Origin: Patellaria atrata CBS 101060
Lineage: Eukaryota
Assembly (NCBI GenBank): GCA_010093705.1
Contig: MU006101.1
Coordinates: 605,673-669,672, forward strand
Length of the DNA: 64,000 nt
Direction: 5' to 3'
The notes beneath the pieces were generated by a model. It saw only the letters and a program-made list of their open reading frames with translations, was not told the origin of the DNA and ran no database searches. A program made the translations under genes and the position numbers. Below are positions 17,208 to 51,917 of the stretch, piece by piece (the stretch's first letter is position 1; each line of letters starts with the position of its first letter).

Positions 17208-18019
17208 TCACCGACTGCAAAAACATTAGCAAAACTTCTTATGCTTCACTTTCTATCGATTAATACTTACGAAGGACTAAGGGGGCGATTGAAACCTCCA
17301 ACGCGGTTCATGTACTGCCTGTACTCGGTCTTCTTCTCCTTTCTCACAGCGTAGTTTCGATCATTCCCTGGGACCTTAGTATTTTTGGTTGTTTTGAAGG
17401 TGGCAAATCCCATCATCTTCTTCATCCGTGTTTCCAGATCATCTTCGTCATCCGCTTCGCCGTCATCCTCCATCCTGGTGTCTCCGTTCATTGTGGCTAC
17501 TTTAGCCGGGGGTCGACTGCTGGGTTGCGAAGGAGCAACAATGGACTTTTGATGTGACAAAGCTCCATTCCGACGATCGCGTGGAAGTACTGTTGCCCGT
17601 GGACCTCGTGCTGGTGAACGAGCCCGAACATCTCGCCCATTCTCCCGTGCGGGAGATCTCGACCTGGATCTAGTACGCCTATCATCTGGATCGCCATTAG
17701 ATTTATTCTCCAGAGATCTGACTCTCCAAAAATTCATCCACTTACCGCGTCGTCCTTTATGCCTCTCCCGACTACCGCTCCGATCTCTCCTTCTGTCCCT
17801 ACTCCTATCTTTATCCTTTCCTTCCCGCCAATCGCGCGATCGTGACCTATGTCTCCCCCCATCTCTATTACGGTCTCGATGATGATCTCTATCTCGTCCA
17901 CCTCCTCTCCTATCGCCGCGACCGCTGCCTCGTGGTGGTGAGTCTCGGCGTCTCTCGCTCAGGTCGAATTTTGAAGTGGTGTCAGTATGACGGGCACGTT
18001 TAGATGGCGGCTCCGCCAT
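17208..18019 (-). CDS. SNRNP27: U4/U6.U5 tri-snRNP 27 kDa protein (DUF1777)
   Basis: MAEPPSKRAR start, RS/RD-rich region, C-terminal MMGFATFKTTKNTKVPGN...KTEYRQYMNRVGGFNRPLSPS; terminal intron 17215-17270 gives ...SPSR-TGA. Confidence 0.9.
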
Positions 18020-18653
18020 CTCAGAATATAAAGGTCCAGGGTTTAAGGTATCCACAGGTTGTATACCAGGGCTAAGGGTTCGTACGCCGTATGGGTTAAC
18101 AGTAGTTTTGCACTTGAGGGAGCGGGTTTTGTCCTTGGACAACAGGGAGAAAGAGAGCTTAGTATTTGTTAGAGCTTTGGATGAGATAGCAACACTAGAT
18201 TTCTGCACGACGATAGAGTCCGGAAATATATGCGTTTCGGGGATGTTGCGAAGAACTGATGTCGTGGACGACTCTTCGCCCGTCCTGAACTTCAAGTGCT
18301 CCATGATTCGCTCTGTCCATAAGCGTGTAGTCTTGGCGTAATTCCGCCCCGCCCTGTGAACTCCGCTACGGAAAATCTTGGTTAAGTGTAATTTTTCGAA
18401 AAATCTACGCAGCTAGAAATTATATCGCTGTAAGGATCAGATGTAGTGTACTAGGTGGTGAAGGAAGTTGTGTGGAGAGAAAAAGAAAGGTCAGTCATGA
18501 GGGCGATTTCAAGGCACAAACGACGTGGAATGCTGTGAATGGCAAGCAAGACATTGTTCTTAGTTTGTCTTAGCTATTTTTTCGTTGCATTACCAGGAGT
18601 AGCTACTGATATCCGTCTAGAGAGTGAAGATCCTCTATGAGAAACCATATCTC

Positions 18654-19763
18654 TCAGATTTCATCCTCCTCCTCATCGAAATCATCCTCTACACCCATAT
18701 CATACAGGATTCTACCCCCCTCTCCACCTTCACCTTTCTGAGCATCGAAATAAGGTAGTACAACTCCTTCTCTATCCCTTCTCTGCTTCTCCGTAAGCCC
18801 AAGGTCAAAAGTCGTATCCATCCCGTCCTGCCCACTACTCTCCTTCGTCTCGGACATCCGTGCGTAAAGGGGATGGTCTTCCAGTAAAATTACGCTTTCT
18901 TTAGGCCTAGTGGTGGATGACGCAGACTGTTTTACACTGTGGGGAAGGAAATACCATTCCTGCATTCCGCGCCCTGATTTACGTCGGAACTCTACCTCTA
19001 AAACCATCCCTCGGGAGTCATTGCTTCCTAAGCCAACAATAACACCTTCATTCTCTTCCGATAGACCGAATACTGGTTCAGCAACACTACGGTCTCGAGC
19101 AGCCTTTTCAGCTAGGAGGTGAGAGATAGAATGAACAGTGACAATGGTGGTGGATAGGTATTTGAGTAGAGTCAAAAGGGAAGGTGAATAAGGAGATTGG
19201 GATAAAGACGAAGGGGTATCCGCATGATAGATAGCCAGTAGTGATGTAGCTGGAGAGATGAAGGATGAAAGGTATAGAGGAAGATTAATGGATATATGAG
19301 AGGAAAGGTTTGTCAAGCTGTCAAAGATAATAAAATGCCCTTCAGATATCAGAACATAGTCTTAAATATTAGTATGATGGTCGTACTTGTAGTGTTATTA
19401 GGAGAGAAATGGTCCTGAATGTTCTTTTGCAGGGCTTCCGGATTCAATCTAGAGCCTTGAATGAAAACCTCAACTCCTAGAGGTTTCCGTAGAGTTTCGA
19501 ACGAAACAAAAATGACACGCAGTTTTGAAACCTAGTATCCCATCAGTGTAAGTTCTATCTTCGGGATGGTTCATTCAACAATCGCTTTTGGGGAGACTCC
19601 GCACCACTGCCCGTTTAATATACTCCCTTACGAGCGGCTTTCCCGACTGCTCCAAATTATCCACAATAAGTGTAAACGGCGATGCGTTTTCTTTGTTATT
19701 CAATAATTTAGAGATAAGGAGCAAATGATGGGTGCGGCGGTGCCGTAATGATCCTGTATTCAT
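18654..19763 (-). CDS. ELP5: Elongator complex subunit 5 (Iki1), 3 exons
   Basis: HRRTHHLLLISKLL...SPFTLIVDNLEQSGKPLVREY; FVSFET; EFRRKSGR; TFDLGLTEKQRRDREGVVLPYFDAQ...GGRILYD...DDFDEEED. Confidence 0.9.
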
Positions 19764-19922
19764 CCTGAAAGATTGAGGTTCTGGTTTTGAGAAAGAGTTC
19801 GCGCTAAGCGAGACTTATACTTATGGGCAAGGGGAGCTGTTGTTTTGGCACCCTCTTTATTACAACACGTTCTTTCTACTTGCAGCTTATAAACAAATAA
19901 ACCGTAACTTTTTTCTATATTC

Positions 19923-20090
19923 CAGAGACCCGTGGCCTAGTGGTGGGAAACCCAACCACACTGATCAGGCCCAAACCAACCAGTCCAGAGGTCGAACCTT
20001 AGAGGAGGGGATAATGCCCTCAAGTAGAAGTACCACGCCGCTCGTCCAATGGATAGGAGCGGATGGGAAATGTTTTGTCCTTTTTTTTTT
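19923..20090 (+). ncRNA. Candidate RNA polymerase III-type structured ncRNA (or tRNA-derived SINE), unassigned
   Basis: TATAAA 19888-19893, A box TGGCCTAGTGG 19933-19943, B-box-like GGTCGAACC 19990-19998, T10 at 20081-20090; four GC-rich hairpins inside a closing stem. Confidence 0.55.
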
Positions 20091-21637
20091 CCAGTTCTAG
20101 AGACCGTTTAGAAAGGGGTATTAATATAATGAAGGGGTGTCAAATAACAGCTCCCTATACTTATTGTTTTGACAACCCCTCGGATGTCGTTTTGACTATG
20201 TATTGGTATGATACTATGACCCCTTTAGCGTCTTCATACTTGATTAACTCTGAGCAAATCGAATATACGTCATCTTGCCATTGCAAAGAATGGCAGTAGA
20301 GCCTAGCTTCCATAGAGTATTAAGCTGTTATAGTACATTGAGAGGACTTGGAAGGGACAAATCTAAAAGCCTTCTTGAACCCCACAACTTCCCTCTGAAG
20401 CATCTAATTGAGACCGTGTAGGACACTATTTAATTTATTAGACTTGTTTGATTCCAAGCTCAGCTCCCACTTGCTGCTCATCTACATAGATATTCTTCGT
20501 TTACGTGTAGTCTTTTCATTTGTTAGTATAGGTAACCTTCACTCTGACGTATCTTATACTTCACATCTTGCCTTTTTAACCCATTGCATGGAACTAGACC
20601 TGCAATTCGCTGACTCCTCGCTATTCACACTATGTCTCATATCCCAGTGCTGCTCTTGCGCTGTGATAGCTTGCTTGCCATAACCTGGAACTTGAGAAAC
20701 CCGAAGTATCCGTTCCATGGTAGAGCATCTTGCTCTAATATCTCCGCATGTGAAATGCTCCTCATATCATTAATCTGGCTCTCTGGTGTAGAAGACGGGC
20801 ACGGACGGGAGTGTCACCACCAGAATGATCGTGCGGGAGCTCAAGAGCATCATTCATGGTGTATCGCCCTACCGTGCTCTATATTCTATTTCTGTCTTGT
20901 GTAAGTTGAACAAGTAGGTGTAAGTTTAGCGCCATTGAAAGGAGACCTGAAGTGTGACCTATGCAGGTCCATAGTGCCCTATTATGACCACTCTCTCACT
21001 ATCCAGCTCATAGACTTGAAGGCCAGTAATTCAGCAGGGGCACAGTCCAGCTGAATGCATACTTACTAGTTGTATTATATTGCATATTATCAGAATGCAT
21101 AGCTAATTATGCAGTCCAGTGGGGTAACCCCATTGCGGAGTGGGTTGCGGAGAAGAAACCGGCTGGTATAAGGTATGTTAATGCGCCATTCCATGTCTCC
21201 AGACAGAGCGAAAAGTATATAGAGGGGTCTGTCGAAGTTGTTCCACTGCTAGCTTTCCCGAAGGAATCCTGAGGCTGCGGATTATGATGCATGTTTGTTG
21301 GCTTTATTCGGAATCGGTTTGTCGGCTTGGTATGGATTGTGTGCTCGCAAATAGGCCGAAAAGAAGGAAATTCTGGTTAACCATAAGAAGAGGCTTTAAG
21401 AAGCAATAATTATAAAGTCAAAGAAGTAGAATGTGCTCCTGAGCTTCTATAACGGTGATTCCGAGGGAATAGAGAAAACTACTCGTAGTGCACAGATTTT
21501 CGAAGGGGGTAGCTGGTGATCGCCACACCCTGACATATCTTAGGTCGACTTAATTTTGAAAATACTCTTTTCCCAAAATCGCAACCATCACATCCACCAC
21601 CTTCCGCGCAGAGATCATACAGCCCACAATAACGACC

Positions 21638-23073
21638 ATGCTTCCGTACTCAGCAAGTATGGCAAGAAGAGGCCTGAGCCAAAGAGTGTCCCGGATCCCA
21701 TCCCCGTTCCCTCTCCGGTTGCCCTCAACTGCCGATCTAGTGGAAAGCCGAATGGAAATTAGCAACCTCGCAGAAATCAGAGATCATAATAACATCGGAC
21801 AAAACCATTCACCATCTTTCCCTCCATTCATACCACCACCGCTCCCTGATGGATCTATAGCTTCCCCCCTTCAACTCACTCGCAATCCCCTCAACCACAC
21901 CCCACACCCGTCTATCCTTAGAATGAGATTTTAGACCCGTGGATGATCACTGGGAGGGAGGATGAGGACTTGACGAGCTTTTTCAAGCTTGAAAATGAGG
22001 TTATGAACAAGATCGGAGCGTTGCGCGAGGACTCCGAATCCCCGGCGGCAGCGAGATCCACGAACGCCACGGCCGAGAAGATCAAAGCTTTGGGAAAGAA
22101 AGCTGCCGAAACCTTAGCAGCGGTTCTATCCTCGACTGAGAGATACAAGGAACTACGGAAGGACGCCGAGGACCTATTGGACCAGGCAAGGAACATCAAG
22201 ACGATACGGGGAATCCTAAAGCAACGTGGAGACAGCACAACACTGTTTCGATACATGTTTGTAACATCGGAATGGGAAAAAGTAGACGAAAGCCAGAAAG
22301 CCCTGACGGATAAACTGGATTTCTTGCAGGGAGAAGATGGGCTCGTAGCGGGAATAGAAAGAGCGCGGAACAAGCATAGAACAGAATCAGAGAGGCTCCA
22401 AGAGGAAATACGCCTCCTCCAAGAGAGTCAGTCTGGGAATATCACTGGTGCTGATTGTTATTGAAAGAAAGAGTAAATGGACGGTATGGGGAAATGAGTT
22501 TGTCTCCCAAACTTGCTGAGCTTGTGCTTGTAGCTAACTGTACCTCATACAAAACCCGAAAGTGTACCATCTGATTGTACGGAATATCGATCAGGGAAGG
22601 TCTCGAGCATGGCACCCAAGAGATTGTACTGCATGCCAGTGAAGGAAAACACTGTAAAAAAAAAAAACCACCTCGACGAAGAGCTCACACGTTTGCGACC
22701 GTGTCGAGGATCAGTAGCCTTAGGGTGAAACCAAGACGAGCTCAGTATACAATACCAGGAGTATCCGCAGAAGGAAAGTAAGAGTTGCTCAACGGAGGAG
22801 AAGAGCATAAACAGAGAGGGGATACTTATTCTGGTACTGGTTCGACAGCAAAAAGAACACATGCACGTAATCAAAACTATGGGAAAGGAGACTCGAAGCA
22901 GTAAAGAGAAGGAGGAAGAACTTCCTGGCCTTACAAAAAGGTATCTTACTTCTGAAGGAACTTTGGCCTATCAACACACCCGTTCCTCTGAGGGAGTCAC
23001 CGCCATGATGGACATTGTAAGAGAAAGACTTAAGGGGACCTTGTCAAGGGATTTAATCTCTAAGATGAGTTAG
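21638..23073 (+). pseudogene. Degenerate orphan gene with coiled-coil core
   Basis: 173-aa helical ORF 21943-22464 preceded in frame by a TAG and Pro-rich codons, and followed by broken frames with an intron-like GTATGG...GCTAAC remnant. Confidence 0.35.
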
Positions 23074-31016: not shown

Positions 31017-31116
31017 NNNNNNNNNNNNNNNNNNNNNNNNNNNNNNNNNNNNNNNNNNNNNNNNNNNNNNNNNNNNNNNNNNNNNNNNNNNNNNNNNNNN
31101 NNNNNNNNNNNNNNNN
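31017..31116. other. Assembly gap (100 N)
   Basis: Run of n characters between two repeat fragments. Confidence 0.99.
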
Positions 31117-40415: not shown

Positions 40416-42478
40416 TCACGCGTTTTCCATATTTTGGCCACCGCGACCTCTGGGTGCAAAGCCTCCTCGATGACCTCTAAACGGCCCACGCCCCCTGCCG
40501 AATCCGCGTCCCCTTCCGCGTCCACGGTGTCCGCCGTGGTAACTATCCACATTGCTTTGTCCAAAGGTCTCAAGATTTTTCTTCCGCTCTTCGGCCCTGA
40601 ACTCAGAGCCTCCCAGCTTAGCATCTTCCCTGTCTTTGAGTTCACTCGAGATGTTATCGAAGAACGAGGTAGACTTGTTGTAAGTAGCGGTTGAAGAGCC
40701 CGGGATGACAACATCCTCCTTAGAATCCCCGCCATTTATATAGCAGGTTTCTCCATTGAGGCCGTTAGCAGGTGTTTCAGTAACAGGAGAACCCGTAGCA
40801 ATCGCCTCCTTGACAAGATCTTGCTTGTTGAACTTCGCATTCGCGGACTGGAAATCGAAATCGGTTTCTGGGACCTCCACTTTAGCTGAATGATGGTCTC
40901 GTCCGCTACCACGACGACCTCCACGGCCACGGTGGTCGCCACGATGGTCACCACGATATCCCCCAGCTCCGTATCCACCTCTTGCTTGGCGAATTTGGTC
41001 ATTAGTGCGCATTTCATTCACCTTCTTTGTAAGATTATCGATTGCACCGTCGTTCGTTGTCACCTTCTGTGTTCCGGGAGCAGGTGGTAATTTCGCCATA
41101 GCGGCAGCAACAGCAGCAGTTGCTGCTTGAGTAGCATTCTGATACTGAACTGTAGGATTAACAGTCGCTTGAGTAGGTTGAGAACTACTTGCAGCGCCCG
41201 TCGCGGTTTTGGGCTTCATTATCATGCCCGAAAGAGGAACTGCAGGTACAACCCGTCCAGACTTAGGCCCTGTGGGCGCTGCATTCGCTGCATTTGAGGG
41301 TTGGTTCTGTGGGGAAGCCACGGGGGCTGGGGGAGCAAGAGCTACAGCAGGATCAGGCTTCGATTCCAGGGGAGGAGGAGGAGCCTGTGCTGATACTACG
41401 GGTGTTGGAGTTGAGGTCTTGCTAATTGGCTTTGTGTCTGTAGATTTCTTGGGCGCCTCCCCATCTGGCGTCTTCTTTTCATTATCCCCCTTCTCCTTGT
41501 TCGCAGTGGGACCAATTGGAATAGGCTTCGTATCGCGCTGGTTCTGTTGAACTGCGCCTTGTCCAGGAGGACCGATAGGGCCCTGATTACCCTGTGCTGA
41601 GAAAGGACCCGGAGGGTGTGGGAATCCTTGACCAGGGGGTGGGTACCAACCAGGAGGAGCACCATAGGGCATGCCGGGATAGGGAGGGAAAGGCCCAGGG
41701 CCTCCAGGAAAACCACCTGGTGGGCCAAAACGTTGACTGTGGAATGGAGGATACGGTGGTTGGAAAGGTGGAGGAGGGTATGGATGACCTTGAGGAGAAA
41801 ATTGTTGTGGGGGTGCCTGTCGATTCTGTTGCTGCGCTGAAGTAGATGTAGGCGGTGGGGGAGGTCGGGCGGCCTTTTGCAAATTTATAGTCAGCTATCG
41901 AAAGACTGTCGCGCGATGTAGTTGGGTACATAAATGAAAAGACTTAATCAGAAGGAAGGCAACGGAAATTTCCACATAGTTTTTGCGCCATCGGTATTGT
42001 TTTTACATCCAATATGTTTCATCATACAAGAATTAGGAGAGAGTAATGGTAATGAGCTTTGGAGTCTTACACCAAGAATCGCAGGGTCATTTGGCACAGG
42101 TGGCTGCGGCGGTTTATTCTCCTTTGGAGGTTCTTCGATTCTGAGATCTTTCACATCGCTTCCTCTGAAGACAATGTACTCATAAATGTTATCCGAAGCG
42201 GGAACCTCTTCGTCAGGTCGCCGACCTTCAGTACCGTGGGAGATGACATTTTCGAGCGCGACTGTGGATTTTTCTGAGTTGATCTCGTGAAGAGTCCCAA
42301 CATAACTGGAGATGGAAGTTAGTACTATTGGAGCTATTTATACTAAATTCTGGGTCATACCGTATATCGCTCTTTGAGATGAGCGATATGCGAGACCTGT
42401 TTGAAGCTCATTGTCAGCTTATTCGTCTCGTGCCTATTCGGAGTCGGTCGCAGTTACGGACCCTATGAACTCAGACAT
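40416..42478 (-). CDS. SCD6: Scd6/Lsm14 (Sum2) P-body protein, 4 exons
   Basis: MSEFIGSRISLISKSDIRYVGTL...YEYIVFRGSDVKDL LSm14 domain; DFDF (TDFDFQSANAKF), FFD (SFFDNIS) and TFG (NLETFG) boxes; RGG tail. Confidence 0.95.
41943..42030 (-). ncRNA. Box C/D snoRNA, snR52-like (predicted guide for 18S Am420-equivalent), in SCD6 intron 3
   Basis: Box C ATGATGA 42025-42019, box D CTGA 41951-41948; upstream guide TGCCTTCCTT is complementary to conserved 18S AAGGAAGGCA. Confidence 0.8.
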
Positions 42479-50703: not shown

Positions 50704-51917
50704 TCAGACACCAACGCAATACTGATATCCAAGCCACAGATTTGTACAGTCCGGTAGAATTTCCGTGTTCCATTGCCGTAGCTGGGCTAGAGTCACACTG
50801 AACTGCGACTGTATGGTCGCGCAAGTATTTCCACTGGCTACGGTGTAGAACTTCTTGCAATTGGAAACCACGCCAGGAGCCGTGGGCGAAGGAGCCGCAG
50901 TTGAGGTAGTACTCGTTGGTTTCGCCGACGTGGATGTTGGCTTGGTCGTAGTGGTAGGTTTGGAAGTGGTTGAAGACTTAGAAGTAGGAGTAGGGGTAGG
51001 AGTAGGTTTGGATGTGGTTGTTGGCTTGACAACGACCCCATTATTGTTCCCAATCGTGTTTTCATTGCATCCTGACTTGGCGTTGACCCATCCTGTCAAC
51101 CTATTGGCAATGTCTGATGCGTAGCAATGCGTAGCAATACCCTTGCCTAAGTTCTTTGACGGATCGATACTTCCGGAGTTGTAAAGCCTCGCCGCCTTGT
51201 AAAACCTACTGATATCGGTAGCGCCAGATCGAGCAACGCACTGCCTCAATCCTTCACCAGACTTGGTTCCATTCGCACCGTCCATGAGCATTTGCAAGAT
51301 AGTAGCCGTCGGACACGGGTTCGTGACCTTGTTCTTGTCGTTGCAAGTCCCTACGCCATTATGGGATTGCATCAACCCAGGATTACGGACGCCATTGTTT
51401 GTTGTGGGAGCGCGAACACAGCCTTTGCTCTCTTGCATTATGACGGCAAGGACGAAACGGCGATCCATTCCAGCTGCCTTTGCCGCTGTCGTGATACTTT
51501 GGAAAATAGCAGTGATTTCAGCGTCGCTATTGTTGGGAAGGTTCCAGATATTCTTGCAAGAAGCTTTCATCAACGGTTTGTTGGCAGTAAACCTAAAACT
51601 TATTTCAGCACTGGATATTTAAACGATACAATGAGTAATCGTACATCTCCTCGTATGTTTTCCACCAAAGAGGGAGGTCAGGCCACCCATTGAGAATGTC
51701 ACCAGTACCGCCATAGACTTTGTATGTGTCTGTAGCGCGCTCTTCGAATGAATGGACGTGTAAGCTTTCATGATAGGCAGCATGACCATGACGTCTGGAG
51801 AGAGTTGCTCCCAAAGTGAATGAAGAAAAAGTGGCGGCAGCCACAATCTGTCCCTGGATCAGTCTTCAACTTTCCCTTCTCGTCACAGGAGAGTCTCACC
51901 AAAGGAGTATATAACAT
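50704..51917 (-). CDS. Secreted lysozyme-like / lytic transglycosylase (SLT, GH23-like) with Thr/Pro linker and C-terminal LysM, 3 exons
   Basis: Signal peptide MLYTPL|IVAAATFSSFTLG; AVIMQES (catalytic Glu), GLMQ, ARLYNSG; LysM CKKFYTVASGNTC...WN...CTNLWLGYQYCV. Confidence 0.85.

Follow-up and report, generated by a model that had tools for sequence, protein, structure and literature searches.

A candidate family of short, dispersed Pol III-type units with one member divergent from ELP5 in a filamentous fungus

Introduction

The nearest published description that we found for the unit reported here is that of AfuSINE2 of Aspergillus fumigatus, a low-copy, tRNA-related, SINE-like sequence of 140-493 bp that carries degenerate A and B boxes, has no cloverleaf and is defined by target-site duplications of 4-14 bp (PMC5063351). 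As far as that description reaches, the two are alike in being short and low in copy number, in coming from a filamentous fungus, in having A and B boxes followed by an unrelated 3′ part, and in a 5′ region without a cloverleaf. They differ in that our unit has no valid duplication, an exact A box, a TATA-bearing 5′ flank that is common to its copies, and T tracts, a separation drawn from the description of AfuSINE2 and not from its sequences. The rodent 4.5SH and 4.5SI RNA genes combine A and B boxes with a TATA-like box at -31/-24 (PMC10137851). Within what this source describes, they share with our unit the layout of a lineage-restricted small Pol III RNA, with internal boxes and a TATA-like box ~30 nt upstream. 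Their origin, however, has been traced (7SL RNA, tRNA), whereas the unit is known here from DNA alone.

Primate snaR is a further example of a lineage-restricted small Pol III RNA. In filamentous ascomycetes, the 5S genes are singly dispersed and TATA-dependent, with the TATA box upstream, and their small size lets them escape repeat-induced point mutation. Our unit resembles them as a short dispersed Pol III unit with an upstream TATA box, but it has no Rfam match to 5S at E ≤ 10, and its promoter looks like type 2 (A plus B box) and not like the 5S type. It resembles tRNA genes in its exact A box, in the B-like box that begins 57 nt further on and in its T-run terminator; it differs from them in its length of ~165 nt and in the absence of a tRNA called by ARAGORN at default settings. 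To our knowledge, little has been recorded of what Pol III transcribes in filamentous fungi beyond tRNA, 5S, U6, SRP RNA and RNase P RNA. The kind of element that we describe, a family of small Pol III units, is already known, and what is new here is the dispersed copy number of this family.

Results

The window that we analysed is the whole of a 64,000-nucleotide stretch from Patellaria atrata CBS 101060, and all positions refer to it. The A-box consensus is TRGCNNAGTGG, and the B box, with the consensus GGTTCGANNCC or GTTCRANNC, is located 30-60 nt downstream of the A box. On the forward strand of the window, TGGCCTAGTGG at 19933-19943 matches the A-box consensus exactly, and GGTCGAACC at 19990-19998, which begins 57 nt past the start of the A box, departs from GTTCRANNC by one mismatch, at the conserved first T. 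A TATAAA box is present upstream (19888-19893, forward strand) and a run of ten T residues, the putative Pol III terminator, downstream (20081-20090, forward strand). Among the features of Pol III type-2 genes, the unit has the exact A box and a multi-T terminator on the coding strand. Judging from the positions of the TATA and A boxes, and with an end placed within the T run, the primary transcript would cover 19917-20085 of the forward strand (~165-170 nt), with its start ~25-30 nt 3′ of the TATA box.

Results showed that TRGCNNAGTGG occurs three times in the 64-kb window when both strands are counted. Of these, the site at 19933 alone is followed by a B-like box at a distance of 30-75 nt and by a run of at least six T within 300 nt, with TATAWA upstream, in a scan that covered both strands. 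Of 300 sequences of 64 kb simulated with a first-order Markov model, none contained this full layout. In addition, the T10 run at 20081-20090 is the single run of ten or more T on the forward strand of the window, and the A-box 12-mer, with up to one mismatch, occurs twice in the window compared to 0.19 expected. The Pol III-type layout at 19888-20090 is well beyond chance. It had been proposed in an earlier note made from the letters of this DNA; every motif of that note is at its place when checked on the letters, and the layout was borne out by its uniqueness in the window and its absence from the simulations.

The unit is divergent from ELP5/Iki1, an intron-containing gene on the minus strand (18654-19763) with its ATG near 19763, ~125 nt from the TATA box. 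This orientation, which had also been suggested before, was confirmed by Pfam Elong_Iki1 matches to the minus-strand neighbour, with E values of 1.7e-69 for 18654-19361 and 9.3e-13 for 19575-19763. ELP5 is adjoined by a minus-strand sequence (17267-18304) whose protein is rich in Arg, Ser and Asp and has an SNRNP27 domain at its C-terminal end (Pfam E 2.1e-25). On the other side, the ~1.4 kb located 3′ of the unit (20106-21540) contain no open reading frame above 96 codons on either strand and no Rfam match.

A search of the window with Rfam 15 at the gathering score gave no match at the unit, and its sole match in the window was snR52 at 41940-42034. When 4227 Rfam models were applied at E ≤ 10 to 801 nt or 181 nt, only unrelated matches of 6.6-16.4 bits were returned. 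In agreement with the earlier claim that the unit lacks the signature motifs of 5S, U1-U6, SRP, RNase P and MRP RNAs, the Rfam check gave no family; the RNA of the unit belongs to no catalogued Rfam family. A highly diverged version of a known Pol III RNA (5S rRNA, the Alu domain of SRP RNA, U6, RNase P/MRP) could lie beyond the reach of Rfam, and what speaks for it is limited to the use of Pol III by these RNAs and the scattered position of the 5S genes in filamentous ascomycetes; with 0 related matches among the 4227 models at E ≤ 10 on either length we consider this origin very unlikely.

ARAGORN at default settings found no tRNA at the unit. With the threshold relaxed to 80%, a minus-strand tRNA was called at c[19977,20046], which we rejected as noise: the window gave 30 such hits, compared to 19-37 in each of ten shuffles. 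The absence of a cloverleaf by ARAGORN and of an Rfam tRNA at E ≤ 10 agrees with the previous assignment of the unit as something other than a tRNA. In contrast, the tRNA-derived origin that had been offered as one interpretation was not supported beyond the A and B motifs, as no tRNA-like fold rises above noise.

Relatives of the unit were sought at several scales. Within the 64-kb window, no second copy was found by repeat search, by blastn with a word size of 7 or by nhmmer --max, where the next match had an E value of 0.11. A core pattern gave 0 matches in JGI metagenome contigs, and a pattern running from the A box to the B box matched 12 loci in those contigs, none of them resembling the unit outside the pattern. 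The core pattern also gave 0 matches in prokaryotic genome and viral contig collections, a result that is expected for a fungal element and carries little weight. The literature, searched by words and not by sequence, returned no described fungal family of such Pol III units.

Copies of the unit were read from the contigs of X1 and X2, the only two public runs found to contain the stretch, which come from the same organism and one sample, possibly the window's own source. In each run, one long contig spans all 3501 bases of 18300-21800 with 0 differences and without joints across the ELP5 introns; therefore, X1 and X2 are DNA. Further contig pieces match the unit at 90-99% identity, 19 of them in X1 and 12 in X2. 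The contig matches to 19895-20088 at this identity have different flanks. Among the matches listed, 14/14 further pieces fall inside 19927-20088, and two more junctions, at 19895 and 19917, come from loose ends. Long contigs (16.7, 5.9, 6.4, 4.2 and 2.6 kb) enter the unit from unique DNA, and their depths are 301.7-320.1 in X1, against a single-copy value of 322.6, and 443.3-471.2 in X2, against 448.6. Since these depths are near single-copy, the long contigs represent other loci of the same genome. The 5′ junctions of the other copies lie before 19895, 19917 and 19927, and with the junction of the window added to these three, the loci number at least four. Summed contig depth over 19938-20054 reached 2668 in X1 (single-copy 322.6) and 2887 in X2 (single-copy 448.6), a ratio of ~6-8-fold that is a rough guide and not a copy number. 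In one contig, a different sequence of 33 letters stands in place of 19933-20008, which points to a rearrangement in at least one copy. All in all, the ~200-bp unit is one copy of a small dispersed family with at least four loci, and the single "unassigned gene" of the earlier note has to be replaced by this family.

The copies also decide on a chance arrangement of motifs in the promoter region of ELP5. Such an arrangement would agree with the weak z-score of the whole molecule and with a direct repeat at chance level, both described below; it is effectively refuted by the copies at several other loci with 90-99% identity, the 0/300 simulations speak against it as well, and we regard its probability as negligible. 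Repetition in the genome is also what a short dispersed DNA repeat without Pol III transcription would show, such as a MITE, a solo LTR or a transposon fragment in which the motifs are incidental. An overall fold that is not significant would agree with such a repeat, whose homology might run past the 90% cut-off of the alignments. The depth profile, however, limits the repeat to ~19895-20090, neither terminal inverted repeats nor TG...CA ends were seen by eye, and the full layout, in which the exact A box is combined with the TATA box, a B-like box at workable spacing and the only T10 run of the forward strand, was produced by 0 of 300 simulations. On balance, we consider an untranscribed DNA repeat improbable.

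A near-direct repeat of 11 nt, TTCCAGAGACC at 19920-19930 and TTCTAGAGACC at 20095-20105 (both forward strand), had been noticed previously as flanking the unit. The repeat is present at these positions, but its similarity is at chance level: 11-mer pairs with up to one mismatch and a spacing of 100-300 number 96 in the window and 48-92 in 20 shuffles. Moreover, the left 11-mer lies inside the stretch common to the other copies, whose matches begin at 19895, 19917 and 19927. On these two grounds we rejected the pair as a target-site duplication. A decayed, tandem second unit downstream was likewise ruled out, as the local alignment between the unit and its downstream flank was equalled in score by 131 of 500 shuffles, a result that also places the 11-nt repeat at chance level.

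Copies were compared by eye on 30-letter fragments from one sample. In the copy with the 5′ junction at 19895, where the computed match ends, the TATA box is disrupted or lost. The letters that precede the junction at 19917 in a second copy fit 19886-19916 over a 23-base run that has two substitutions and one indel and includes TATAA, and the TATAAG-bearing 5′ flank in this by-eye alignment corresponds to 19886-19909. Upstream of the junction at 19927, in a third copy, ~20 T-rich letters are ~70% alike by eye, which is a weak match. Thus, 22-30 nt at the 5′ end are common to two of the three other copies, perhaps by eye to the third, and the distal flanks differ. This homology lies 5′ of the start that the A box predicts, over 22-30 nt, and amounts to ~70-80% identity compared to 90-99% in the core.

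These 5′ ends bear on whether the family could be a low-copy, non-autonomous retroposon (a tRNA-related SINE), in which case a Pol III transcript would have been copied back and the copy on the ELP5 side would be one insertion. Dispersed copies that are 90-99% identical with different distal flanks, rearranged or truncated variants, and internal A and B-like boxes would all follow from such a process, whereas 22-30 nt of upstream homology including the TATA box would not be carried along by transcript retroposition. The 3′ ends, visible in three copies, consist of T7 behind 20077, T7 behind 20088 and, in the third copy, T4-A-T4. No A-rich tail was found at the 3′ end of either strand of the unit or in the three visible copies. 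The unit also has no simple-repeat or visible LINE-like tail, and its T run would stop Pol III inside the element, two further points against a SINE, to which the 11-mer pair, at chance level and with its left copy within the common unit, and the absence of a tRNA-like fold above noise have to be added. On the other hand, the size of the unit is inside the 140-493 bp range of AfuSINE2, whose 5′ regions are also without a tRNA fold, and few dispersed copies with A and B boxes are what the published description reports, in the part that concerns us, for low-copy fungal SINE-like sequences (PMC5063351). Weighing these observations, we regard a SINE as a serious but somewhat unlikely explanation. 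The rule formulated in the earlier note, that many dispersed copies make a SINE, applied here in part: the copies are dispersed over at least four loci, but they are few, end in T tracts and have a common 5′ flank.

We analysed the predicted RNA for structure on the forward strand. In the minimum-energy fold of 19929-20067, a closing stem pairs CCCGT (19929-19933) with ATGGG (20063-20067) and is predicted to enclose hairpin 1 (19934-19971), which has an asymmetric internal loop at 19960-19966, hairpin 2 (19988-20000), with 5 bp and a 3-nt loop in which region the B-like box is located, hairpin 3 (20005-20021), with a GAGGG/CCCUC stem and a 7-nt loop, a small extra stem (20024-20033), and hairpin 4 (20038-20062), with the basal stem CCGCUC/GAGCGG. 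The stems drawn earlier from the letters are equal to this computed fold. Comparison with shuffled sequences gave a z-score of -1.97 for hairpin 1 (-15.4 kcal/mol, 10/200 shuffles as good), -2.26 for hairpin 2 (6/200), -2.58 for hairpin 3 (3/200) and -3.14 for hairpin 4 (0/200). The z-score was -1.46 for the whole fold of 139 nt (19929-20067; 18/200 shuffles as good) and -0.95 for a 161-nt stretch (38/200). The modelled thermodynamic signal is therefore mixed and supports structure in part, with hairpins 3 and 4 standing out and hairpin 1 marginal, and the fold of the whole molecule, as modelled, is not significantly stable.

Hairpin 3 sits where most contig pieces from other copies overlap. 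By eye, two other copies retain the basal stem of hairpin 4 and differ in the sequence and length of the apical part, which is much shorter in one of them and longer in the other. A kept base with a varied tip could reflect an RNA structure under constraint, and deletion within a palindrome could be the alternative. The disrupted TATA box and the rearranged copy indicate that some copies are decaying, as expected of a functionless repeat.

Discussion

We propose that the unit is a member of a lineage-restricted, multi-copy family of Pol III small-RNA genes, a reading to which we give about an even chance. It is preferred over a classical SINE because the copies share upstream homology with a TATA box and end in T-rich tracts. 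Transcription, the start site, the ends of the RNA, the mode of spread and any function are what we infer from the DNA. Each member of ~200 bp would be a tRNA-type Pol III transcription unit with an added upstream TATA box. TFIIIC would bind the A box at 19933-19943 and the B-like box at 19990-19998, and TFIIIB would be placed on the TATA box at 19888-19893; Pol III would initiate near 19917-19925 and terminate in the T10 run at 20081-20090. The product would be an RNA of ~165 nt with an oligo-U tail, in which a closing stem would enclose four to five hairpins. The lower identity of the flank compared to the core would be the result of gene conversion or stronger constraint acting on transcribed sequence. 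Since copies have in common a 5′ flank that would not be transcribed, TATA box included, the family has more probably spread as DNA than by retroposition of a transcript.

Beyond a gene family as such, the copies might represent a class of structured Pol III RNAs of ~165 nt that is lineage-restricted and new to the literature, encoded by several dispersed genes that each have their own TATA box, A and B boxes and terminator. Under this proposal, selection would hold the core at 90-99% identity and keep the base of the 3′ hairpin, the flanks would drift to ~70-80%, and the RNA would serve the cell, for instance as an RNP scaffold, instead of being a selfish repeat. We put this forward tentatively, as a possibility that we would not yet call probable. 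Repeat-induced point mutation acts on sequences above a certain length, and units as short as these would escape it, which would let several copies persist.

Of the overall interpretation in the earlier note, the layout, the distinction from tRNA and from Rfam families and the divergence from ELP5 stood, and the single gene and the tRNA origin were not supported, nor did the near-direct repeat qualify as a target-site duplication. A multi-copy structured Pol III RNA that is absent from Rfam would, if true, be a new entry in the Pol III output of fungi, and the case illustrates how short Pol III units can increase in number where the genome otherwise eliminates repeated sequence. If the family were a SINE-like repeat, it would be a routine matter of annotation. 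Under both readings, a probable TFIIIC/Pol III site lies ~125 nt from the start codon of ELP5 and could affect the ELP5 promoter. A discrete transcript together with covariation across species, if found, would raise the importance of the family.

Elsewhere in the window, the snR52 match corresponds to a C/D snoRNA homologue on the minus strand (41940-42034, within ~41875-42070; Rfam 84.6 bits, E 1.7e-15). It lies between same-strand exons that encode an LSM14/Scd6 Sm domain (42071-42337) and an FDF domain (40416-41894), with a GTAAGA 5′ splice site just upstream of it, and looks intron-encoded in an SCD6/LSM14 gene. In S. cerevisiae, SNR52 is an independent Pol III gene. Because snR52 is intronic here, its promoter cannot be used for comparison with that of the unit. 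The window also contains an assembly gap of 100 N (31017-31116) and, on the forward strand at 50927-51022, a G/T-rich, degenerate repeat whose copies recur every 12-18 nt and are 60-71% identical to each other; it may belong to repetitive coding sequence of the opposite strand.
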